Below, one piece after another: positions 1,933-12,235 of a DNA stretch of 53,746 bases. The stretch's first letter is position 1; each line of letters starts with the position of its first letter. Made by a program: the position numbers and the translations under genes. The notes under the pieces were generated by a model. The model had not been told where the DNA came from and searched no databases. It saw only the letters and a program-made list of their open reading frames with translations. Source of the stretch: Candidatus Brockarchaeota archaeon (GTDB taxonomy: Archaea > Thermoproteota > EX4484-205 > JAAOZP01). Location: the NCBI GenBank assembly GCA_017601245.1, contig JAFNJB010000014.1:1-53746 (forward strand), written 5' to 3'.

Positions 1933-2442
1933 TTAAGGCTTTTCGATCACTGTCCTTGTTACTATTTCTATCCTCGTTACTTTACCTTTTTCAACATCAA
2001 CCCATACGAATGCTATCCCAGAATAATTCTTGCGTAAGACTAAGATAGCACTCTTAGCCTTTACTGTAATGCTTCCATTCCTCCCGATATTGGTTGAAAC
2101 AATCGGTCTGATGCAAGTAATATTATAACCCTCGGAAAGCAATTTCTGCACATCTTGGTCACTCTCAACTATTTTGATAACGTTCTCTTTAAACTCCTCA
2201 CTGATGTTTATGAAGCCGAAGCCCCACTTGAAATGGCCGCAATACGGGCCTATCCTAGTAAAGTTCCAGTTCCATTCTTTGAAAAAGCCGGGTAAACCAC
2301 GACCTAGTCGTCCGAATCTGAAGCCATTTGGTAAATCGTCTTTTTGTGCAAAAACATTAACTACACTAGCGCATATAATTAGGAGGCTTGCTGACAGGAA
2401 TAGTGTAAGCAACATTATCCTAGGAAGCTTGTTCATCATCAT
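1933..2442 (-). CDS. Uncharacterised secreted/membrane-anchored protein, candidate BlaI-regulon member
   Basis: N-terminal signal-like hydrophobic stretch, Gly/Arg/Phe-rich linker, globular C-terminus; TATA and operator directly upstream. Confidence 0.8.
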   Translation of the reverse strand: MMMNKLPRIMLLTLFLSASLLIICASVVNVFAQKDDLPNGFRFGRLGRGLPGFFKEWNWNFTRIGPYCGHFKWGFGFINISEEFKENVIKIVESDQDVQKLLSEGYNITCIRPIVSTNIGRNGSITVKAKSAILVLRKNYSGIAFVWVDVEKGKVTRIEIVTRTVIEKP

Positions 2443-2446
2443 TTGT

Positions 2447-2463
2447 TACTACGTTTGGTAGTA
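2447..2463. promoter_or_regulatory. Putative BlaI-family operator, site 1 (TACTAC-GTTTG-GTAGTA)
   Basis: Perfect 6-5-6 palindrome between minus-strand TATA (CTTATATA 2476-2469, BRE-like GAAAAA) and ATG at 2442. Confidence 0.8.
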
Positions 2464-2547
2464 GATACTATATAAGTTTTTCTTAAAAAGCATAAAATAG
2501 AGAAATCTTAAATAAACTAGTAGAATGGAATTTCAGAACAAGAAAAA

Positions 2548-3693
2548 TTGGAAATCACAATTAGAGAGAGTCGTGATGTAGGTAGGGTAATTAAGCTATA
2601 CGAACAACATAAAGGTGTTCCTTTTACGTATTTGATGAATATTCCGCTTGTAAAAATGCTAAGCCAGCTAGAATCATTCAAAATCTTTTTAGCCGAAGTT
2701 AACGATGAGATAGTTGGCTGCATCCATGCATTAGACTATGTTTACGATTGTGGGTATATTGGAGGCCTCTTAGTCCATAAAGATTTTAGAAGAATGGGAA
2801 TAGGTGGCAAATTGTTGAAAACGGCCCTAAGCAGTCTCCGTGCAAAATACGTTTATCTTTTTGTAGAAGAGAAAAACACCGTTGCAATAAACCTCTTTGA
2901 GAAAACGGGTTTCAAAAAGATCTATAGGAGGCTCTTATACACCGTTTCAGTACCATTAAACAATGGTTTTAAGCTACAGATAACAAGTGAAGTTGAATGG
3001 GAAGGTTTGAAGAATGCCATTGGCTTTTTAGAAAGGAAAGGAATCGTTAACTTTGGTTATTATCCGATTAAGATGACAAGAAACGTGTTTGAAGATTTGA
3101 AAGCCAAGGGTAAAGTATTAAGATGCGGTGGAGTTATAGCTATAATTGAGAATTTGCATGGATTGATAGTCGGAGACAATCTTTATACTTTCAACGACTA
3201 TGTCTTTAAGCATTTGCAGAAAGTTGATTTCTCGAGAAAAATCGTTGAGATAAACCCTTTCTACATAGAACCTGAACCATCAGACTTGGTCAGTTTAATA
3301 AATCATCTGTTAACACTTGGAGAAGTACATATTAAAACTTATGATAGAGACCCTGTGGTAATTAAGCTACCTTTAGCAGGAAAAATAGGAGCATTAACGA
3401 TGGAGTATAAAGGAGCTTGTACTCAGTATGTCTATAACGGAGGAGGATTGCTTGAAGTCGTTGACACACAAATGTACTACGGCAGGAAGGCTCCCAATCA
3501 GGTTGCCGAGCTTTTCGGAGTCCACTTCTACGGAGACTTAACGATGGATGCGGTAATAGTCAACTTCGACCACCCGATAACAAGGGATAAGAAGCAGGAA
3601 GACCTGTTCAACCCGTTCCTCCTGTATGATGCTGCGATAGACAGGTACCCCAGCAATGCAACAGTACTGGTGAGAGCGGGTGTCAAAGACTAG
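2548..3693 (+). CDS. GNAT-family acetyltransferase with apparently foreign C-terminal extension
   Basis: Motif A LLVHKDFRRMGIGGKLL and NTVAINLFEKTGF; last ~90 aa differ in composition and GC. Confidence 0.8.
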   Translation: MEITIRESRDVGRVIKLYEQHKGVPFTYLMNIPLVKMLSQLESFKIFLAEVNDEIVGCIHALDYVYDCGYIGGLLVHKDFRRMGIGGKLLKTALSSLRAKYVYLFVEEKNTVAINLFEKTGFKKIYRRLLYTVSVPLNNGFKLQITSEVEWEGLKNAIGFLERKGIVNFGYYPIKMTRNVFEDLKAKGKVLRCGGVIAIIENLHGLIVGDNLYTFNDYVFKHLQKVDFSRKIVEINPFYIEPEPSDLVSLINHLLTLGEVHIKTYDRDPVVIKLPLAGKIGALTMEYKGACTQYVYNGGGLLEVVDTQMYYGRKAPNQVAELFGVHFYGDLTMDAVIVNFDHPITRDKKQEDLFNPFLLYDAAIDRYPSNATVLVRAGVKD

Positions 3694-3753
3694 CGTGCCA
3701 AACGGCACCAGCATCTCAACAATGGCAGAATCCTGTTTTCTAGGTTTTTGAGG

Positions 3754-4275
3754 TTAAGGCCTAGGTATGATTTTTAGGAGGAGCCAGTTTATGAATCCGA
3801 TTAGGAGCGCGAGCCATAGGATTAGGATTATTTTGTAGCCGATTTCGCGTGGCCATCTTGCTGCTGGGGGGAAGTATTTTGCTTCTTCTTTAGCGCCTTG
3901 GTACATGATTATGTAACTTGTGGCCATGAAGAATATTGCGAGCATTGGGTCTTTGAACCATGATCCTAGTGCTAAGCCGATTATGAGCACTGTTAAGCCA
4001 GCGTATTTGAAGGCCCTGGCCCTGGGGGACTTCCTTACTTCAGGAGGAATCTCAACCTTTAAACGGTACCACTCGGGGCCGAAATGCTTCCTCATATACC
4101 AGATTGCATAGGTAAATCCAATTAAAACCGTTGGAATGATTGCTGCCATACTTATTACGAACTCTCCCTCCGAGAGGGATGCTGTTAAAGCGAAGTAGAG
4201 AAGGGGAGTTCCAAGTATCATTAATAAAGCTACAATGATAAGTATTGCATATGCCTTAAACTTACTGTTCAACAT
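3754..4275 (-). CDS. Hypothetical polytopic membrane protein (paralog of 4703-5281)
   Basis: About 5 hydrophobic segments; shares KAY, ILGxPL, GPEWY, EIPxEV, QGxxxEAKY with 4703-5281. Confidence 0.8.
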   Translation of the reverse strand: MLNSKFKAYAILIIVALLMILGTPLLYFALTASLSEGEFVISMAAIIPTVLIGFTYAIWYMRKHFGPEWYRLKVEIPPEVRKSPRARAFKYAGLTVLIIGLALGSWFKDPMLAIFFMATSYIIMYQGAKEEAKYFPPAARWPREIGYKIILILWLALLIGFINWLLLKIIPRP

Positions 4276-4361
4276 GATATTTGTAACAATTCTTTGTTAT
4301 TAAGTTTTTCTTTATACAAGTAACTAAGCCACCAACATTTTTAATTAGTGACATTGACGCT

Positions 4362-4616
4362 TTGTCTCGGGAAGCATTTTCAAAGGAACAGAGTGTAACA
4401 GAGGTGAAGAAAGCGTTATCCAACAAGATAGATGCAGTGATTAAGATGGTTGAGAAGGATGCCTATCATGGTGCTATTAACAAGTTGATGAACGATATAT
4501 TGGCTAAAATGGATGGAGACCCTAAGCCAAAGGACTGGATTATCAACTCCATTGCTCAAGTCTCGTTGAAAAGGCATATCGATTGGATTATCACCAATAT
4601 TAGAGCATTACTTTAG
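4362..4616 (+). pseudogene. Isolated C-terminal helical (FIMAH-like) domain, likely 3' remnant of a large surface protein gene
   Basis: ALSNKIDAVIKMVEKDAYHGAINKLMNDILAKMDG..DWII resembles C-terminal helical-bundle tails of secreted proteins; frame open upstream to 4287 without ATG or signal peptide. Confidence 0.5.
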
Positions 4617-4702
4617 GACTATTTTTTATTCCCTATATTTTTACTAAATAAAGCGGAATCTAGAAAATATTTATAATTGCAGATTTATACTACATCCTTT
4701 AG

Positions 4703-5281
4703 TTGGTTAGCGAGAAAGTTAAAGCCTATTCGATAAGTATCGGAATAGCATTGCTTATAATTCTTGGGATACCACTTGCCTACTATGCTCTCCACAGAGG
4801 TATTTCCGAGCTGGAGTTGAAGATAGGTCTTTGTTTTAGTGTTCCCATGGGTGTGGCTGTGTTTATTTACCTTGTTCTGTATCCAAGGATAAAGCATGGG
4901 CCCGAATGGTATAAGGTGGAGTTTAGAAAGGCTGTTGATTATGAAATTCCGCGGGAGGTTGCCAGAAAGGCTAGACAGATTAAACTAATTGGTCTGCTCG
5001 TTTTATTTCTGGGCGTGTCTTTTGGAATAATAGTTCAAATGATTGAGCTTGCAGCATTATTCGCATTAGTCGGTTTGACCATTGTTTTTCAGGGTCAACG
5101 TAAGGAAGCGAAGTATCTGTCCGAAGAGGCAAGGAAAGAGTATGAGAGAATATATGGGGATAGGCTTAGGAAGATGTGGCTGATCCATATTCTGGCACGC
5201 CTAATCATATTAGTAGCTGGAGTGATAATCGCCCTACTCACACTCTGGCAAATACAAGCGTTTATGAGGACGCTGGCCTAA
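4703..5281 (+). CDS. Hypothetical polytopic membrane protein (paralog of 3754-4275)
   Basis: About 5 hydrophobic segments; shared motifs with 3754-4275; TATA TTTATAAT near 4670. Confidence 0.8.
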   Translation: MVSEKVKAYSISIGIALLIILGIPLAYYALHRGISELELKIGLCFSVPMGVAVFIYLVLYPRIKHGPEWYKVEFRKAVDYEIPREVARKARQIKLIGLLVLFLGVSFGIIVQMIELAALFALVGLTIVFQGQRKEAKYLSEEARKEYERIYGDRLRKMWLIHILARLIILVAGVIIALLTLWQIQAFMRTLA

Positions 5282-5296
5282 TCTCTCAAATCTCTT

Positions 5297-6256
5297 CTAT
5301 TTCTCCTGTCTTCTTGTGAATATCATGTAAGAGGCGAATAGGAAGACTATTGGAAAGACTATGAGTACTACGATGTCTATTAGACGTGTTGAAATAACCG
5401 TCGGAATGCTAGTCAATGTTCTTCGACTGAATTCAATAGGCCTAGTAGCATAGCCGAATAGTAGGCTGGTGATCTGCGTATAGTGGTAGTTTATTGAGAA
5501 AGCCTGTATCATGCTCGAGATTTCCGCCTCCCTCCTCATGTAGTCCAAGTATTCTTGTGGAAAGATGCTTGGGGATGTGAAGTTTCTAAATTGTCTTTGC
5601 GACATGTTAAAAGCTTGAAAGCTTCTCACGGGGGGAGGCCCTAAGACAGCAGTTGCAATAAGGCTACTTATTGCCGACAATATAAATGCGAAGAAGATCC
5701 AAATGCCTATGCTAATTATGAGTGAGTGGCTTGACTTGCTTGAGAGTGTTGAAATGAATAATGAGAATGCATAATATGCAAATGAGAAGACTATTGAGAA
5801 AACTATGAACAAACAGACTCTTGCAATATCGTCCATTGTTACTGCAATGTTATGTAGAAGTATAGAGATGGATACTGCTGCAAAGGATGATAGAGTTACT
5901 GCTAGACTTATTACTGCTAAGGCGGAGATTATCTTACCATTAATAACATCCTCTCTGTATATTGGTCTTGAAAGCAATATCCTAAGTGTCCCCCGCTCTC
6001 TTTCCCCAGATATAGCGTCAAATGCCAACGCGATTCCAAGCAACGGAGCCATGTAAGCCATTGTTGTGGCTATTGCAGAAAAAACTGAAGCTACGGGCCT
6101 ACCTGCTTGTTGAAAAGCAGTTATTACCCGGAAAATGGTTGAGTAGGTACTGGCTACTGAAAACAATAGCAATACGCCTACGATTAACCAGAGTCTCTTA
6201 CTTGTTATGGTGTCCGTGAATTCTTTTCTTGCAATAGATAAAGCGTCGCTTATCAT
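5297..6256 (-). CDS. ABC-2/NosY-type ABC transporter permease
   Basis: IARKEF N-terminus, DAISGERERGTLRILLSRP motif, about 6 TM segments. Confidence 0.92.
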   Translation of the reverse strand: MISDALSIARKEFTDTITSKRLWLIVGVLLLFSVASTYSTIFRVITAFQQAGRPVASVFSAIATTMAYMAPLLGIALAFDAISGERERGTLRILLSRPIYREDVINGKIISALAVISLAVTLSSFAAVSISILLHNIAVTMDDIARVCLFIVFSIVFSFAYYAFSLFISTLSSKSSHSLIISIGIWIFFAFILSAISSLIATAVLGPPPVRSFQAFNMSQRQFRNFTSPSIFPQEYLDYMRREAEISSMIQAFSINYHYTQITSLLFGYATRPIEFSRRTLTSIPTVISTRLIDIVVLIVFPIVFLFASYMIFTRRQEK

Positions 6257-6259
6257 TTT

Positions 6260-7213
6260 TTATCCACCCTCCTGGTAGAAACGGTATATTTCATCCCAAG
6301 ACGGCTCTATTGGCTTTAGAGACTCCACCGCATCCTTGAACTGAGGCTTTGAAACAAGGGGTAAGAGTTCGCCCCATATTTCTCTCCTCGATAACACTGT
6401 AACGTGATTCTCATTCTGCTTTATCTCTATTACGTCAGATATTGACCTTATTTCTTGCAGTAGCATATCAATACCGGATTTAACTCGAAGCTCATAACGA
6501 TACCCCTTCGCTTCCCTAACAGATTGATATAGTTCTTCTACACTTCCCTGTACGAGAAGCTTTCCTCCACGTATTACTGCAGCATGAGTGCATACCATAC
6601 CCACCTCGTAAAGCAGGTGTGTCGACATGAGGATTGTCTTACCCTCCTTGTTCATACTCTTAACAAGGTTTCTGAATTCAGCAGCACCTTCAGGATCTAT
6701 CCCGACCGTGGGCTCGTCGAATATTAAGAGCTCAGGATCCTTCAACAGGGCCTGGGCTATTCCGAGCCTCTGCCTCATACCTCTCGAAAATGTTGAAACC
6801 TTATCATTAGCCCTGTCCTTTAAGCCAACCATCTCAAGTGTCTCAAGCGCTCTCTTCTTCCTTTGGTCCGATGGTATCTTATCTAAAGTAGCTAGGAAGA
6901 CGAGGTTTTCAAGCGCAGTCATATGGTCGTAGAAGCCGAAGCCCTCTGGAAGAAGCCCTACTCTTCTTCTTATCTCTACGGATTCTTTAACAACATCGAA
7001 CCCAAGCACTTTCGCATTCCCGCTCGTAGGCAGAATCAGACCCACAAGTATCGATATCAGTGTTGTTTTCCCAGAGCCATTTGGTCCAAAGAGGCCGTAT
7101 GTACTAGCTTTGGGTATTTTCATGCTTATTCCATCAAGGGCCTTAATTCCAGAACCACCTTTACCATATATCTTAACAAGGTTCTCGACTTCTATAGCTA
7201 AATCCATTTTCAT
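6260..7213 (-). CDS. ABC transporter ATP-binding protein (CcmA/multidrug-type)
   Basis: Walker A GPNGSGKT, signature FSRGMRQ, Walker B LLIFDEP, H-loop STH; TGATG overlap with upstream gene. Confidence 0.95.
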   Translation of the reverse strand: MKMDLAIEVENLVKIYGKGGSGIKALDGISMKIPKASTYGLFGPNGSGKTTLISILVGLILPTSGNAKVLGFDVVKESVEIRRRVGLLPEGFGFYDHMTALENLVFLATLDKIPSDQRKKRALETLEMVGLKDRANDKVSTFSRGMRQRLGIAQALLKDPELLIFDEPTVGIDPEGAAEFRNLVKSMNKEGKTILMSTHLLYEVGMVCTHAAVIRGGKLLVQGSVEELYQSVREAKGYRYELRVKSGIDMLLQEIRSISDVIEIKQNENHVTVLSRREIWGELLPLVSKPQFKDAVESLKPIEPSWDEIYRFYQEGG

Positions 7214-8976
7214 CACCTCCTTCCATATCTTCGATATATCATGAAGGTTGCTGCAGCCATGATTACAACGATTAAAACTCCTATTAGGACAGTTTCTCCT
7301 CTTTGCTTCACATACACGTGTAAGCTCCGAGCTGGAGCCTGACTCTGATCTGCTTTAAGGCTTAGAGTAATATAGTAGTCGCCAGGACTTACATCAGCAT
7401 CGCTCGTAACCGTTAATGAGAAAACAGCACTTTCCTGAGGCTTAAGCAGAGATACCAATTCTGGACTTACTTTAACACTGAAACCATCAGGCACGTCTGA
7501 AACCCCAAGGATAAGATTTGAAAGCGAACTATAGCCAGTATTTTTAGCCTCAACCTGGAATGTTATTGACTCTCCAGCCGTTGTCTCACAATAGAAGTTT
7601 TGAGTAATATAAGAAATAGTGTAGGAACCTAATATTCCTAAGCTCAGGTTAAGCCTTTCAACAGAGTCTCCGGAGCTAGCTTCCAATGTTATGAGTATTA
7701 TATTTGGTTCGGCGAGTGGAGGTATGTTTACAAACAGGTTTAGATTCTTGCTCTCACCAGTTTTCAAATATATTTTAGACAGAACGTTCCCAGACTCGTC
7801 CTTAACCAACCAGCTATAGCCGGAAGGAAGTCCTCTTACACTAATGTTTACAATCCCATCCGAATCACCTCTATTTTCGACCGTTATGGGAAATTTGGCA
7901 GTACTTCCAGCATAAGCATCGACATACGGTATGTTTGCATAAAGTTTCAACTTGGGAGTACCTTTCACTACAATGATTTTAAGCGGTAGTTTTGATTCAA
8001 AAATAGCTGTTTTAAGCAATACTATTGTTTCATATTCTTTAGGGATCTCATCAGCCGGTATTTCTAATTTCACCTTCGCGTTAATAGATTCTCCCACTCC
8101 TAACGAGACACCTTGAAGACTGCTACCATCGCTCCTAATAATGATCCCACTCCAATTGTCTGGTAAAATAAGGGATAGTGTTCCCGTAAACCTTTTTGTC
8201 AAGACATTCTTTATTGTTAAATCGAAAACTACCGTTGAACCTGGTACTGTCCGTACTATTGGATATGTTGAAGAGAGTATTTGAATATTGGGCTCTTTAA
8301 CGTAAACTAGGATTGTTCTCTCCCGGGTAATTGAACCCGATATTCTAACCGTTATGTTGTAAATTCCTTGTGCATTGTATGGAGGCTGTATTTTTAGAGT
8401 TAGGCTTTGAACACTACCGGGACTCAACGTTAGGTTAATAACTTCAGCCGAACCCGAGCAAACACTTACTTCCCATCCCTCTGGCGCCTTGGTTGAAATT
8501 GTTAATGTCTCCTCCCCTGATCCCTTGTTTTCTATAGAAAGTGGTACATTTACCTCTGAAAAAGCCTCTACTTTTATGTATACTTGAGGTATTGAAAGTC
8601 GTAACGCATAGTCAAGTATTACCTCTCCTAAATCAACATAATTGTTCACACTCACAGCTATTAACTTACTTTCATACCCTTCTTTTTCTATTTGAATCCG
8701 ATAGGTTCCCGATTGAAGCGTTATACTAAAACCTCCACTTAAAAGCGTTTTAGTCTTCGCTACGAATGCTCCAGAAGTATCGTAGACAGTTACTGTTGCA
8801 TAGCCTAAGGGATTTCCCTCGACGTCTAGAGCCCTTCCATAAACCGTGTAGTATGTCGGTTCTTGAACATATTGGCGTTGAGCATAAATTTGAATTACGG
8901 GAAGGATAGAGGTCAATACTATTAGGAGCAATAGGAAACCATGTGAAACCATTCCATGCTCGATTTTCATACTCAT
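7213..8976 (-). CDS. Membrane-anchored surface protein with carboxypeptidase-regulatory-like and repeated NEW3/Ig-like domains (COG1470-like)
   Basis: Signal peptide; VYGRALDVEGNPLGYATV..G.FSI domain; repeated xNxG..P.GW modules; C-terminal TM plus RRYGRR. Start moved to ATG 8976 because 8977-9011 holds operator and TATA. Confidence 0.88.
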   Translation of the reverse strand: MSMKIEHGMVSHGFLLLLIVLTSILPVIQIYAQRQYVQEPTYYTVYGRALDVEGNPLGYATVTVYDTSGAFVAKTKTLLSGGFSITLQSGTYRIQIEKEGYESKLIAVSVNNYVDLGEVILDYALRLSIPQVYIKVEAFSEVNVPLSIENKGSGEETLTISTKAPEGWEVSVCSGSAEVINLTLSPGSVQSLTLKIQPPYNAQGIYNITVRISGSITRERTILVYVKEPNIQILSSTYPIVRTVPGSTVVFDLTIKNVLTKRFTGTLSLILPDNWSGIIIRSDGSSLQGVSLGVGESINAKVKLEIPADEIPKEYETIVLLKTAIFESKLPLKIIVVKGTPKLKLYANIPYVDAYAGSTAKFPITVENRGDSDGIVNISVRGLPSGYSWLVKDESGNVLSKIYLKTGESKNLNLFVNIPPLAEPNIILITLEASSGDSVERLNLSLGILGSYTISYITQNFYCETTAGESITFQVEAKNTGYSSLSNLILGVSDVPDGFSVKVSPELVSLLKPQESAVFSLTVTSDADVSPGDYYITLSLKADQSQAPARSLHVYVKQRGETVLIGVLIVVIMAAATFMIYRRYGRR

Positions 8977-8999
8977 TGTTACTACTGGCAGTAGTAACA
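8977..8999. promoter_or_regulatory. Putative BlaI-family operator, site 2 (TGTTACTACTG-G-CAGTAGTAACA)
   Basis: Perfect 11-bp inverted repeat containing TACTAC-N5-GTAGTA (8980-8996), between minus-strand TATA CTTATAAA (9011-9004) and ATG 8976. Confidence 0.85.
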
Positions 9000-9053
9000 C
9001 TACTTTATAAGCTTTATTGCTCGGAATTCAAAATATGGAAAAAGTTAAATAGT

Positions 9054-9070
9054 TACTACATATGGTAGTA
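9054..9070. promoter_or_regulatory. Putative BlaI-family operator, site 3 (autoregulatory; TACTAC-ATATG-GTAGTA)
   Basis: Perfect palindrome just downstream of GAAAAAG-TTAAATA (BRE/TATA) and upstream of the repressor ATG 9087. Confidence 0.85.
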
Positions 9071-9086
9071 TTTTAGGGAAAGAAAA

Positions 9087-9512
9087 ATGTCTAGAAAGTC
9101 ATTGGTATCCCAATATAATATCGGTGAAAAAGAACTCAAAGCATTTTTAGGACCTTTAGAGGTAAACGTGATAGAGATCATCTGGAGTTCGAAAAAGCCA
9201 CTCACCGTCAGGGAGGTTTACGAGAAACTAAAGCGGAAGAGAAAGATTGCCTATACCACTGTAATGACTACGATGGATAGGCTTTATGACAAAGGATTAT
9301 TAGACAGGAGGGCTGAAAAGGGGCGTGGAGGTATTTTCTATATTTACTGGCCTAAGTTTGAGAAAAATAACTTCAAGAAGTCAGCAGTCCACGAAGTACT
9401 AAACAGCCTTATAGAGAATTTTGGCGAGATAGTTGCAAACTATTTTGTTGAAAAAATCTCTTCTAGAGACCAAGAGCTTAAACAAAAGCTTGAAAGAGCT
9501 TTAAGAAAGTAG
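9087..9512 (+). CDS. BlaI/MecI/CopY-family transcriptional repressor
   Basis: LGPLEVNVIEIIW..LTVREVYE..IAYTTVMTTMDRLYDKGLL wHTH; C-terminal dimerisation helices (LIENFG..ANYFVE). Confidence 0.93.
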   Translation: MSRKSLVSQYNIGEKELKAFLGPLEVNVIEIIWSSKKPLTVREVYEKLKRKRKIAYTTVMTTMDRLYDKGLLDRRAEKGRGGIFYIYWPKFEKNNFKKSAVHEVLNSLIENFGEIVANYFVEKISSRDQELKQKLERALRK

Positions 9513-9521
9513 TGGTTTAAT

Positions 9522-10853
9522 ATGGCAGTTTTAGAAAGCCTTCTAGTACAGTTTTTCCAACCCTATTTCTACTACTCTACGAGTATTTTAATAGTCTCAT
9601 TCATTTGCATCAAGCTGATCACTAGATATAATCTACTTCTTACCACAAGGACTAAGAGCATAATGTACTTAATTCCCCTAACCATTCCAATTTTGCTGAT
9701 TACTTTTATTTCGCCTTGGCCAACTAGATTCTTTTCTATTGAAAAGAGATTACTTTTCTATAACCAATTACTTCTTGATAATTCATTGTTAATACGGCCT
9801 TGGGGCCCCAAACCCTTCCTTCCTAATATACCGCATATTGGAAGAACAGTCTTCATCCAGCCTCTAAACCTGCTTTACACAATTGGTTTTGCATTATCTT
9901 TAACATATGTGATTTTAACATTAACTCTTGGCGATATTATAGTTAAAAAAGCTTTTCACATCATAGAGCTTAGTTCCGGAGAATATGAGCCTTTACAGAG
10001 AAAGGTTTTGGAGCTGGCTTCTAAAATGGGGATAAGTAAACCTAAGATAGGACTTGTAGAAGATTTGAGGCCAAACGCTTTCGTCGTAGGTTATGGGAAA
10101 AAGACGATGCTTGTTTTCTCATTAGGACTCTTAAAAACTCTAACGAAGAAAGAGTTGACTGCAGTAGTAGCTCACGAATTAGCACATATTAAAAACCGTG
10201 ATTTTATTTTCAAAACCTTAACGACTGCACTATCACTGTTTTCATTCTTCAATCCGTTTTCACACTTATCTGCAGTATCGGCACAAAGGGAGAGAGAAAG
10301 CTTGGCAGATGAAGATAGTGTAAAAATACTGGGAGGAACCAGCTTGCTTGTAAGGGCAATAGTTAAAATAAACAAGGTAGCTACCAAGTTACCGAGGGAA
10401 AGTTTTACAATACGCTTAACGTCGAGCCTATTCCTAACATCCCCCATTTCCTTAAGAATATTGTTTTCAACGCATCCAAAGCTCGAGTACAGGATAATGA
10501 AAATTGAGGAAATAGATAAAGTGAAAAACGTTAGTAAGGATAATATTATTTTTTCAATGTTATTGTCCGCAGTGATTATTGCAACAGGCATTTTAACCAT
10601 TTATATTCTTGCCTCTATTCAAACATCCTTCATGAGACAGTATATTCCTTGGATGATGTTTAGAATGTCTCCTCAGAAGATTTTCATTCCAAAGCCGGGC
10701 CTTAATAATATGGTAGATAATGCACGTTTACCAAGTTTTCTTAAACATAGGGATTCTGTTAACTCACTTATTCTAGGAGAAAATTTGGGAATTAAAAACT
10801 ACTTGAAGCCTCGTTCAAAAATATCTTCTAGCCATGTTATTATTTTTACTTAA
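9522..10853 (+). CDS. Membrane zinc metalloprotease, M48/M56 (HtpX/BlaR1-like)
   Basis: Several TMs, PNAF, HELAH zinc motif, ESLAD, STHP; directly follows BlaI-like gene. Confidence 0.9.
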   Translation: MAVLESLLVQFFQPYFYYSTSILIVSFICIKLITRYNLLLTTRTKSIMYLIPLTIPILLITFISPWPTRFFSIEKRLLFYNQLLLDNSLLIRPWGPKPFLPNIPHIGRTVFIQPLNLLYTIGFALSLTYVILTLTLGDIIVKKAFHIIELSSGEYEPLQRKVLELASKMGISKPKIGLVEDLRPNAFVVGYGKKTMLVFSLGLLKTLTKKELTAVVAHELAHIKNRDFIFKTLTTALSLFSFFNPFSHLSAVSAQRERESLADEDSVKILGGTSLLVRAIVKINKVATKLPRESFTIRLTSSLFLTSPISLRILFSTHPKLEYRIMKIEEIDKVKNVSKDNIIFSMLLSAVIIATGILTIYILASIQTSFMRQYIPWMMFRMSPQKIFIPKPGLNNMVDNARLPSFLKHRDSVNSLILGENLGIKNYLKPRSKISSSHVIIFT

Positions 10854-10858
10854 TATGC

Positions 10859-12091
10859 TTAGGTTAATTGTGGCCTTGCTTCAAGAGTAACAGGGACATT
10901 GAGAATTTGATTGCTTCTGATTATTGTTAGAGTAACGGTTTGGCCTGGACGAGTATACTCCTCGAGAAAAGCAAAAAGATCATCTCCATTCGAGATCTTG
11001 AACCCGTCTATCCCTATTATGATATCCCCACCAATCACAAACCTCGTTCCCTTGATTATAACATGTTTGTTTCCACCCTGAAGACCTGCTTTAGCAGCAG
11101 GCCCATTAGGCGTAGTACTGATTATAAGCCAGCCGTATGTTACATTCACATTCATTGCTTTAGCTAGATCATAAGTCACATCCATACCCGTTACTCCCAG
11201 CCAAGGATGTTGATCATAATATCCCTTTTTAATAAGGGATTCTATTTCACGTAGAATCGTATTCGACGGAATCGCAAAGCCGAGTCCTTGCGAGTCCTTT
11301 ACTATAGCAGTGGTGATTCCAACAACCTCTCCGCGTAAGTTGAGGAGCGGCCCTCCAGAATTACCCGGGTTTATTGGAGCAGTCGTCTGAATACAATTAG
11401 CTATGGGATAGCCTCCTGTAAGGTCCTCAGTAATCGTCCTGCCGAGGGCACTCACTATTCCGGAGCTCATTGAACCAGCTAAACCATAGGGATTTCCTAT
11501 GGCTACGACGGGGTCTCCTACTTTAAGCGTTGACGAGCTTACTATTTTTAGTGGCTTAAATTCCTCTAAGGGAGCTTTTACTGTTAGAACAGCAAGGTCA
11601 GAGTAAGGGTCGAATCCCTTTAAATCAGCCGGGTAAGCATTGCCACTTCTAAATCTTACAGTAATGTCGTGTGCATTGCTAACAACATGATAATTAGTAA
11701 TTACTACAAATTGGTCTTCAAAAAGGTATACGAAACCTGAGCCTTGAGTAGTGCTGTAATAGGGACGATAGAAAATATCGTATTGCACAATAGTTCCAGT
11801 TATAAGGACAACAGAGTCTCTAACTTTCTCATATAGTTCAGAAAGAGAGAAATTACCATCTGAAGTATATATCGTCACCACGCTACAGTCGGTAAACTGT
11901 ATTGCTGAAATACGGTTTTCAAGATTTGAAATCCTATTCTGAAGCTCGTTAATCCTATTTAGGATTGTTAGAATGCCAATTGAGAATCCTATTAATATTC
12001 CTATTACGATACATGCTAGAATTAAGATAATTTTTAAATCTTTGAAAGATGTTTTCACTTGGAACCCTTCGTATGGAGCGCTTTCATACAT
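10859..12091 (-). CDS. htrA: HtrA/DegP-family membrane-anchored serine protease with PDZ domain
   Basis: TNYHVV, SDLAVL, INPGNSGGPL triad motifs; N-terminal TM plus coiled coil; C-terminal PDZ (WLGV..GPAAKAGL..GDII). Confidence 0.95.
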   Translation of the reverse strand: MYESAPYEGFQVKTSFKDLKIILILACIVIGILIGFSIGILTILNRINELQNRISNLENRISAIQFTDCSVVTIYTSDGNFSLSELYEKVRDSVVLITGTIVQYDIFYRPYYSTTQGSGFVYLFEDQFVVITNYHVVSNAHDITVRFRSGNAYPADLKGFDPYSDLAVLTVKAPLEEFKPLKIVSSSTLKVGDPVVAIGNPYGLAGSMSSGIVSALGRTITEDLTGGYPIANCIQTTAPINPGNSGGPLLNLRGEVVGITTAIVKDSQGLGFAIPSNTILREIESLIKKGYYDQHPWLGVTGMDVTYDLAKAMNVNVTYGWLIISTTPNGPAAKAGLQGGNKHVIIKGTRFVIGGDIIIGIDGFKISNGDDLFAFLEEYTRPGQTVTLTIIRSNQILNVPVTLEARPQLT

Positions 12092-12098
12092 TCCAAGC

Positions 12099-12115
12099 TA
12101 CTATTATCAGTAGTA
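12099..12115. promoter_or_regulatory. Putative BlaI-family operator, site 4 (TACTAT-TATCA-GTAGTA)
   Basis: 11/12 match, between minus-strand TATA CTTATTAA (~12129-12122) and htrA ATG 12091. Confidence 0.75.
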
Positions 12116-12161
12116 GGCTATTAATAAGCATTTCTGAAAAATGGTAAAGAAATCAGTAAAA

Positions 12162-12235
12162 TGCGGCGTCCGGGATTTGAACCCGGGTTACCAGCGTGGC
12201 AGGCTGATGTCCTAACCAGACTAGACGAACGCCGC
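12162..12235 (-). tRNA. tRNA-Gly(GCC)
   Basis: GCGGCGT/ACGCCGC-A acceptor stem, anticodon loop CT-GCC-AC, T-loop GTTCAAATC. Confidence 0.97.

Follow-up and report, generated by a model that had tools for sequence, protein, structure and literature searches.

The 53,746-nt contig JAFNJB010000014.1 of a hot-spring Candidatus Brockarchaeota archaeon (assembly GCA_017601245.1, positions 1 to 53,746 of the forward strand; this whole stretch is called the window below) carries adjacent genes for a winged-helix repressor of the BlaI/MecI family (blaI) and a membrane zinc metalloprotease. Around this pair the same 17-bp palindrome occurs four times, and each copy lies between a TATA-like element and a start codon. 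The four promoters are those of the repressor-protease operon itself, of a divergent operon for a surface protein and an ATP-binding cassette (ABC) exporter, of an htrA gene, and of a gene for a small secreted protein (orf169). Read together, they suggest a local BlaI/MecI-type regulon with proteolytic relief and an input from envelope stress, a reading that we consider fairly probable as a whole.

Operators and promoter geometry

The palindrome TACTAC-N5-GTAGTA (TACTACNNNNNGTAGTA) is present in the window without mismatch at 2447-2463, 8980-8996 and 9054-9070, and with one mismatch (TACTAT) at 12099-12115. A preliminary description had reported these four copies, three matching at 12 of 12 positions and one at 11 of 12; the scan of the window confirms them and finds no fifth site with one mismatch or fewer. 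Dinucleotide shuffles of the window (n = 100) hold a mean of 0.09 such sites and at most one, none of the 100 reaching four. In the whole assembly (1,295,755 bases in 61 contigs, 41.5% G+C, 92% complete) the same four are the sole matches with up to one mismatch, and they fall within 9.7 kb, around the genome's single gene of family PF03965. From the G+C content, about 0.13 exact copies are expected in the genome, and hexamers of the same composition average 0.16. Among all perfect palindromes of the 6-N5-6 form in the genome, nine hexamers occur at least three times, and of these nine only TACTAC has three copies together on a single contig, in a span of 6,607 bases. Allowing two mismatches adds 44 sites. 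Open frames of 150 codons or longer contain 33 of them, and only two pass a crude TATA-plus-start filter. A genome-wide search for a wider regulon gave no further member and no other promoter with the box; an intergenic site on contig C36 has no nearby start codon in the right geometry.

At all four promoters the order, in the direction of the gene, is TATA-like element, box, start codon, as the preliminary description had it. The orf169, NEW3 and htrA genes are on the minus strand, and coordinates are given on the plus strand throughout. Operator O1 (TACTACGTTTGGTAGTA, 2447-2463) is 5 nt from the TATA element of orf169 (TTATATA, 2469-2475, minus) and 4 nt from its ATG at 2442. Operator O2 (TACTACTGGCAGTAGTA, 8980-8996) follows the TATA element of the NEW3 gene (TTATAAA, 9004-9010, minus) by 7 nt and precedes the ATG at 8976 by 3 nt; with its flanks it makes a perfect 9-N5-9 palindrome (TGTTACTAC / GTAGTAACA). 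Operator O3 (TACTACATATGGTAGTA, 9054-9070) begins 2 nt past the TATA element of blaI (TTAAATA, 9045-9051) and ends 16 nt ahead of the ATG at 9087, and operator O4 (TACTATTATCAGTAGTA, 12099-12115), the copy with one mismatch, is separated by 3 nt from the htrA TATA element (CTTATTAATA, 12119-12127, minus) and by 7 nt from the ATG at 12091. In Archaea the centre of the TATA box is some 26 nt ahead of the transcription start. With this spacing transcription is predicted to begin level with the 3' edge of each box or just beyond it. The boxes would then cover about -20 to -2, and three of the four mRNAs would have little or no leader.

Two other features lie close to these promoters or resemble them. 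A site at 4688-4704 (TACTACATCCTTTAGTT) has two mismatches with one half-site perfect. A TTTATAA (4671-4677) precedes it by 10 nt, and it shares bases with the TTG start codon of orf192 (4703-5281), the gene of a membrane protein with four transmembrane segments; the site may be a weak fifth operator, or chance. A gene for tRNA-Gly(GCC) (12162-12235), like htrA on the minus strand, lies 34 nt past the TATA element of that gene.

The repressor

The blaI gene (9087-9512, plus strand) encodes a winged-helix protein of 141 residues, and its earlier assignment as BlaI-like stands. Residues 21-136 match positions 1-114 of the 115 in the Pfam profile Penicillinase_R (PF03965; E-value 8.2e-23, 81.4 bits, cut-off 22.6), and no other gene in the genome matches this profile. 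The best solved relative in the PDB is 2g9w_A (6.7e-9); MecI (1okr) scores 1.1e-5. The entry 2g9w has the title 'conserved hypothetical protein' and is presumably Rv1846c of Mycobacterium tuberculosis. The recognition helix AYTTVMTTM (residues 55-63) is nearly invariant over archaeal and bacterial members, with A55, Y56, T57, T58, M60, T62 and M63 invariant or at least 90% conserved in 33 sequences, and KIAYTTVMTTM here aligns with DLAYTTVMAVL of 2g9w_A. The identity of the AYTTVMT helix with that of M. tuberculosis BlaI, as claimed previously, therefore extends to six of the seven residues, with 2g9w reading AYTTVMA. Residues N101-F102 of MecI align with N118-Y119 of the repressor, and in most of the 33 relatives this position reads N, S or A followed by Tyr. 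Archaeal members share a four-residue insertion (GRGG) after the wing.

The partner protease

The protease gene (9522-10853, plus strand) starts 9 nt after blaI. Its product of 443 residues is an M48/M56-type membrane zinc metalloprotease by Pfam (M48, 86.3 bits; M56, PF05569, 64.2 bits with a cut-off of 31). The gluzincin motifs are H218ELAH, D227 and E259SLAD; H218, E219, H222, D227, E259 and D263 are invariant in 55 homologues, and these six residues align with H201EXXH, D210 and E242XXXD of BlaR1, motifs described in a passage of PMC9834060. By hydropathy there are hydrophobic segments at about 16-40, 46-64, 117-142 and 342-360, with the protease domain between the third and the fourth, as in BlaR1. 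Positive charges in the short first loop would place the catalytic site on the cytoplasmic face. The tail after the last transmembrane segment has 83 residues, with no penicillin-binding domain and no Pfam match, and neither Pfam nor hydropathy reveals a recognisable sensor domain anywhere in the protein. Homologues range in length from 283 to 632 residues.

An AlphaFold (AF2) model has a predicted local distance difference test score (pLDDT) of 77 and a predicted template modelling score (pTM) of 0.74. In this model the pLDDT of the tail is below 50 from about residue 388, and both the tail and the loop between the second and third transmembrane segments are unconserved and poorly modelled. 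Foldseek returns ZMPSTE24, BlaR1, HtpX and BepA, all with probability 1.0 and TM-scores of about 0.3, so that the model does not separate M48 from M56. The closest PDB sequence is HtpX (3cqb, 5.5e-8), against 9.1e-4 for BlaR1 (8exs). In NCBIfam the best HtpX model scores 94.1 bits against a cut-off of 369, all eight HtpX models staying under their cut-offs, and blaR1_generic (27.9 bits, cut-off 400) and MecR1 (40 bits, cut-off 1200) are likewise not reached. The protease is thus BlaR1-like in layout and context and does not belong to the beta-lactam-sensing BlaR1 family. Of the earlier label, a BlaR-like membrane zinc protease with an HELAH motif, the motif and the layout hold and strict family membership does not, the protein being as close to HtpX as to BlaR1 and having no beta-lactam sensor.

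A ten-residue stretch near the N-terminus (residues 10-19, 9549-9578), Q-x-F-Q-P-Y-F-Y-Y-S, is nearly invariant in the 55 homologues and probably lies on the outer face or at the start of the first transmembrane segment. Since the outer loop and the tail are unconserved, this stretch is a candidate sensing or gating element.

Genes under the operators

All targets are extracytoplasmic, either secreted or in the membrane, as judged by hydropathy. The operon on the far side of the divergent promoter region (5297-8976, minus) is supported by Pfam, hydropathy, synteny in six related loci (L001-L006) and strand-consistent RNA reads, and its genes overlap or are 3 nt apart. It encodes a NEW3/CARDB-type surface protein with a signal peptide and a C-terminal transmembrane anchor (7213-8976), an ABC ATPase (6260-7216) and an ABC-2 permease (5297-6256), the last two assigned by Pfam. 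The htrA gene (10859-12091, minus) encodes an HtrA/DegP-type serine protease with an N-terminal membrane anchor (residues ~21-39), a Trypsin_2 domain (1.2e-31, 110.8 bits) and then one PDZ domain (PDZ_2, 7.1e-9, 36.3 bits). It scores 265.8 bits with the NCBIfam model degP_htrA_DO (TIGR02037), under the cut-off of 416.2, which is consistent with the single PDZ domain. The gene orf169 (1933-2442, minus) encodes a secreted protein of 169 residues with a signal-peptide-like N-terminus; it has no Pfam or NCBIfam match, the Atlas gives archaeal hypothetical clusters only, and its structural neighbours are under the bar for naming. Pfam thus bears out the genes proposed earlier for the four promoters (a secreted protein, a NEW3-ABC ATPase-permease operon, repressor plus protease, and HtrA), with orf169 remaining without a family. 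Between orf169 and the operon, a GNAT acetyltransferase frame (2548-3693) encodes 381 residues, and its relatives align only to residues 1-288.

Distribution and conservation among Archaea

The closest named records with the repressor are from metagenome-assembled genomes (MAGs) of Thermoproteota and Candidatus Brockarchaeota (74-84% identity). Beyond these, identity is 56-63% in Bathyarchaeia, 48% in a Methanomassiliicoccaceae MAG and 40% in a Hadarchaeota MAG; bacterial homologues (33-47%) are mostly from Chloroflexota, with others from Actinomycetota, Bacillota and Vulcanimicrobiota. In 301 drawn Thermoproteota genomes the repressor (E ≤ 1e-10) is found in 23, among them 15 of the 16 same-genus genomes besides the window's own, and few others, scattered elsewhere. 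In a maximum-likelihood tree, the 10 bacterial rows are separate from a group that holds 22 of the 23 archaeal rows, with support of 90/90, below the starred level; the remaining archaeal row is outside the group on a very long branch. The transpeptidase family PF00905 was not found in this 92%-complete genome, and 10 of 14 control genomes have a member; together with the Brockarchaeota and Thermoproteota affinities, this agrees with the earlier view of an archaeal host without a peptidoglycan target. The gene family as such is not new in Archaea, PF03965 being present in the genomes of Methanocaldococcus jannaschii and Haloferax volcanii.

In five of the related loci (L002-L006) the gene order is kept: ligase, GNAT, the permease-ATPase-NEW3 operon, divergent blaI plus protease, and htrA. 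At least two boxes (two mismatches or fewer) lie in the divergent NEW3/blaI region in all 16 same-genus loci, the window's own included, and at least one in five of seven more distant Thermoproteota loci. Aligned intergenic regions show islands of conservation at the NEW3 box, at both TATA elements of the divergent region, and at the htrA TATA element with its box. The NEW3 box is conserved in L001-L006, and the htrA TATA element with a box of the form TACTA[CT]-N5-[AC]TAGTA is kept in 6/6 aligned htrA promoters. The scan of relatives therefore places the motif at orthologous promoters, as the preliminary description would have it. The closest relative, L001, has its blaI box arranged as in the window, downstream of the TATA element, and the divergent region of L007, a locus from Bathyarchaeia, contains three boxes that read TACTA[TC]-N5-ATAGTA.

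Pooling the genus gives 39 distinct boxes, with 1.7-2.0 bits per position in the TACTA core, 0.93 bits at the sixth position (C/T) and 0.02-0.26 in the spacer. The flanks, which were not used for selection, are still conserved (G in 55 and T/C in 72 of 78 half-sites), and the pooled consensus is G[TC]TACTA[CT]-N5-[GA]TAGTA[AG]C. Further exact or one-mismatch sites in relatives (G006 C108, G003 C16, G003 C31) are in coding frames or beside nothing recognisable. Upstream of blaI in L008 (Bathyarchaeota), L009 (Methanomassiliicoccaceae) and L010 (Hadarchaeota) there is no box with one mismatch or fewer and no clear 6-N5-6 palindrome, and the operators there may have diverged. The L009 locus, with the order blaI-protease-htrA, has at 9950-9990 a direct repeat, GCATAGTAG-N10-GCATAGTAG, upstream of blaI in place of a palindrome.

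The orf169 gene is not located between the ligase and GNAT genes in L002-L006, and two further genomes of the genus have it. In one of these (G003) the orthologue is 60% identical, and its promoter keeps the TATA spacing along with an exact box whose spacer differs; in the other (G012) the gene is preceded by the same box as in the window. This pattern indicates that the regulon gains and loses accessory members. As a further observation, L002-L006 lack orf169, orf173 and orf192, all three membrane or secreted proteins of no family, in the interval from ligase through GNAT to permease, and the tblastn matches of ligase, GNAT and permease there succeed one another within about 40 nt.

The box in Bacteria

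Of 80 homologue loci, bacterial ones included, 29 have a relaxed box, TACNAC-N5-GTNGTA with one mismatch or fewer in its ten positions, between -300 and +30 relative to blaI; a background of 0.026 per kb predicts about 0.7 in the 26 kb covered. Loci of Actinomycetota and Chloroflexota have TACGAC-N5-GT[AC]GTA upstream of blaI. The box TACTATTGACAGTAGTA is identical in three bacterial loci, from one Bacillota and two Vulcanimicrobiota MAGs. Its spacer holds the -35 hexamer TTGACA, and 17 nt further on is TAAAAT or TAAGAT (L059 9902-9935, L050 9872-9905), an arrangement that reads as a textbook sigma-70 promoter. The same operator is thus embedded in the -35 region in Bacteria and follows the TATA box in the archaeon.

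Transcription in a hot spring

Four hot-spring metatranscriptome runs were used, of which only X3, about 5% of it read, was usable; X1, X2 and X4 gave one or two partly fitting reads or contig pieces each. From X3, 128 reads were placed, 68 of them at 99% identity or better, and their strands fit those of the annotated genes throughout. Depth is about 3.7-4.0 on orf169, 1.8-3.7 on the ABC operon and up to 4.7 on htrA; it is 3.4-5.5 on orf173, which has no box, and up to 1.1 on the GNAT gene. No clusters of read starts usable for mapping transcription starts are present in X3. These data document transcription in nature, in one metatranscriptome, and are not a test of co-regulation.

Proposed circuit and alternatives

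In the proposed circuit a dimer of the repressor would bind operators of the pooled consensus form, between the TATA element and the predicted transcription start, at the promoters of all four units, namely blaI with the protease gene, the divergent NEW3-ABC exporter operon, htrA and orf169. That the repressor binds these boxes is very probable. Once bound, it would stop transcription factor B (TFB) and RNA polymerase from engaging the promoter and so keep all four units low, its own included; repression by such occlusion of the core promoter is probable, judging from the position of the boxes. The co-transcribed protease, with four transmembrane segments, a cytoplasmic catalytic site and variable loops outside, would cut the dimerisation domain of the repressor at or near N118-Y119 and bring about derepression. 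On balance we lean slightly towards this inactivation by the neighbouring protease, to which a predicted complex of the two proteins, detailed below, lends weak support. The input would be envelope or secretion stress, in which extracytoplasmic or membrane proteins are damaged or overloaded. It is the likeliest signal because all targets are secreted or membrane proteins and one of them is the quality-control protease HtrA, and it is put forward tentatively.

Several observations weigh against this circuit. Everything in it beyond the DNA pattern is inferred, and the transcription starts are derived from TATA spacing. The genome-wide count of four sites with up to one mismatch is below the eight of a reversed control pattern; the signal is therefore one of exact copies, clustering and promoter position, not of total number. 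The second box of L002-L006 stands some 75-80 nt ahead of the blaI match, between the two TATA boxes, and abuts the blaI TATA element upstream, not downstream, and only a degenerate copy is found downstream of that TATA element; the operator has shifted relative to the core promoter within one genus. In X3, depth is about 2-5x for the three target units and at most 0.9 for the blaI-protease operon. No X3 reads fall on 8172-8976, the 5' third of the NEW3 gene, with the rest of the operon at about 2-4x; this gap could come from an internal start or from strain divergence, the latter because reads over 7000-7835 carry several differences. A predicted complex of protease and repressor gives only weak support. 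Finally, the protease is closer to HtpX/M48 and has no recognisable sensor, and could be a target of the regulon and not its switch.

This last point leads to the alternative that survives best, which we regard as rather unlikely: repressor and operators are real, the M48 protease is an HtpX-like quality-control member of the regulon, and the repressor is inactivated in another way, by heat-labile folding or a ligand. In Escherichia coli, htpX and degP are in one stress regulon, and here too the other targets, HtrA included, are quality-control or envelope genes. The PDB, NCBIfam and Pfam scores given above all place the core of the protease nearer to HtpX (5.5e-8 vs 9.1e-4; about 94 vs 27.9 bits; M48 86 vs M56 64 bits), and a sensor domain is absent. 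A complex model of protease residues 1-385 with the repressor, both entered as alignments, is also only weakly in favour of an interaction. It has an interaction prediction score from aligned errors (ipSAE) of 0.44 (0.43-0.45 in three runs; best of three controls 0.00), with contact agreement between runs of at least 92% and a partner pLDDT of at least 70. Of 80 solved complexes 58 attained the benchmark mark, as did 2 of 110 mismatched pairs; with scores no higher than 0.60 it was attained by only 7 of the 80, and by both of the passing mismatches. The result is graded as weak support. Set against this alternative is the strict pairing of the two genes: the protease gene is directly downstream of blaI in 10/10 archaeal loci, from several phyla, and of seven bacterial reading frames tested after blaI, five encode a short M56 protease (316-506 residues) that has no sensor domain. 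The hydrophobic segments have the BlaR1 layout, the aligned scissile position keeps N or S and then an aromatic residue, and every HtpX equivalog cut-off is missed by a wide margin.

A second alternative keeps the circuit and changes its input, to an antimicrobial compound or peptide active on the envelope and sensed by the variable outer loops of the protease, with the ABC-2 exporter as the resistance effector. The system would then parallel inducible antibiotic resistance and would not be a general stress response. The ATPase resembles those of drug and lantibiotic-protection systems (drrA, 240.7 bits; galliderm_ABC, 178.6 bits; both under their cut-offs), the ABC/NEW3 module accompanies blaI in 8/10 archaeal loci, and the unconserved loop and tail, with homologues of such different lengths, are as expected of a diversifying sensor. 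ABC-2 permeases and DrrA-like ATPases are generic, however, HtrA and orf169 have no obvious role in efflux, and no ligand-binding domain is recognisable; we judge this version improbable.

That the repressor is a CopY-type metal sensor, releasing DNA on copper, is highly improbable. Its best NCBIfam match is indeed CopY_TcrY (TIGR02698), but with 40 bits this is far under the cut-off of 121.95. CopY uses a C-terminal Cys motif, which is impossible in a protein with no cysteine in its 141 residues, and the boxed genes include neither a copper ATPase nor a chaperone. The chance that the palindromes are accidental, or a generic promoter element unrelated to the BlaI-like protein, is negligible, for although their count of four is below the eight of the reversed pattern, three exact copies lie in 6.6 kb where about 0.13 are predicted genome-wide, all sites are in promoters flanking the sole blaI gene and no other promoter has the box, the boxes are kept in orthologous promoters while their spacers are free, and in two of two genomes of the same order that gave no BlaI match at E ≤ 1e-10 the htrA promoters (htrA identity 51-52%) lack the box.

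Relation to known systems

In its workings the circuit would resemble BlaI/BlaR1, and still more the bacterial BlaI/M56 pairs that lack a sensor. With the BlaI-BlaR1 (MecI-MecR1) systems of Staphylococcus aureus and Bacillus licheniformis it shares the Pfam family of the repressor, inverted repeats in a divergent promoter region, predicted self-regulation, and an adjacent membrane gluzincin with four transmembrane segments and HEXXH...EXXXD motifs that would be cytoplasmic here as well. A C-terminal dimerisation domain is likewise common to the repressors, with N118-Y119 here in alignment with the N-F bond known to be cut; a passage of PMC9834060 has BlaR1 cutting BlaI between N101 and F102. 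In contrast to BlaR1, the protease lacks the penicillin-binding sensor domain, has in its place only the unconserved tail of 83 residues, and has its higher scores with M48/HtpX. No beta-lactamase or penicillin-binding protein is among the targets, which are HtrA, the NEW3 surface protein with its ABC exporter, and the secreted orf169 product; the host is an archaeon in which no transpeptidase gene was found, and the operators are located between the TATA element and the predicted transcription start instead of on a sigma-70 promoter.

M. tuberculosis BlaI (Rv1846c) with BlaR (Rv1845c) is a near parallel in that 2g9w is the closest solved relative, with AYTTVMA for AYTTVMT in the helix. Work of Sala et al. 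from 2009 reportedly describes a partner protease without a sensor domain and a box of the TAC-N-AC...GT-N-GTA kind. The text of the papers searched prints no sequence for the M. tuberculosis box; the Actinomycetota and Chloroflexota loci do have boxes of this type ahead of blaI. The M. tuberculosis regulon is said to include blaC and ATP-synthase genes, and not HtrA or ABC genes. It differs further in its bacterial promoter, and the archaeal repressors have the GRGG insertion and group apart. The sensor-less pairs of Bacillota and Vulcanimicrobiota (L050, L059, L080) have a box TACTAT-N5-AGTAGTA upstream of blaI, and a 348-residue M56 protease without a sensor after it; their box spacer is the -35 hexamer TTGACA, whereas the box here is downstream of the TATA element. 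For Clostridium thermocellum, DNA affinity purification sequencing (DAP-seq) of BlaI_0696 and BlaI_1845 gave small self-regulated regulons with inverted repeats 5 nt apart, according to a passage of PMC8457756.

Among Archaea, the placement of the operators is that of MDR1, Phr and LrpA, and exclusion of RNA polymerase would be expected from it. These repressors act downstream of the TATA box, with the operator between it and the transcription start, and Phr controls a small heat-shock regulon together with itself. They belong to different protein families, and we know of none of the three under the control of a dedicated membrane protease. In its output, which includes an HtrA-type and an HtpX-type protease, the circuit resembles the bacterial Cpx, sigma-E and CssRS responses. 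Cpx, sigma-E with RseP, and CssRS induce HtrA/DegP, sigma-E by regulated intramembrane proteolysis. Those are two-component or anti-sigma cascades, unlike the pair of one protease and one repressor here.

Full-text literature searches for the BlaI/BlaR family in Archaea found no characterised member, in agreement with the preliminary description, which knew of none; the sole relevant text found is a remark on an annotated gene of the family in Haloferax mediterranei, in a passage of PMC9240420. What is new in this locus is a defined operator, its placement in archaeal promoters, targets of the HtrA, surface-protein and ABC type conserved across several archaeal lineages, and an M48-like sensor-less partner.

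Little is known, to our knowledge, of how archaea sense trouble beyond the membrane and signal it to the transcription machinery. The locus offers a compact and testable circuit for this, with one repressor, one protease, a 17-bp operator and four promoters, and with targets that point to quality control of surface proteins. We suggest, with some reserve, that it may represent archaeal transmembrane signalling by regulated proteolysis of a repressor, in which a sensor-less M48/M56 protease would detect damage or overload at the surface, release the repressor from its operators by cutting it, and so switch on HtrA, the surface-protein/ABC module and itself. Such a counterpart of Cpx, sigma-E and CssRS would be shared by Brockarchaeota, Bathyarchaeia, Methanomassiliicoccales and Hadarchaeota, and, if true, would be the first to be defined. 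One repressor-operator pair would also fit two transcription machineries, with the -35 element inside the spacer in Bacteria and the box just downstream of TATA in the archaeon. If the proteolytic step is true, it would give a physiological role beyond beta-lactam resistance to the sensor-less proteases of BlaR-like type, a group that is frequent in Bacteria as well and so far without explanation there.

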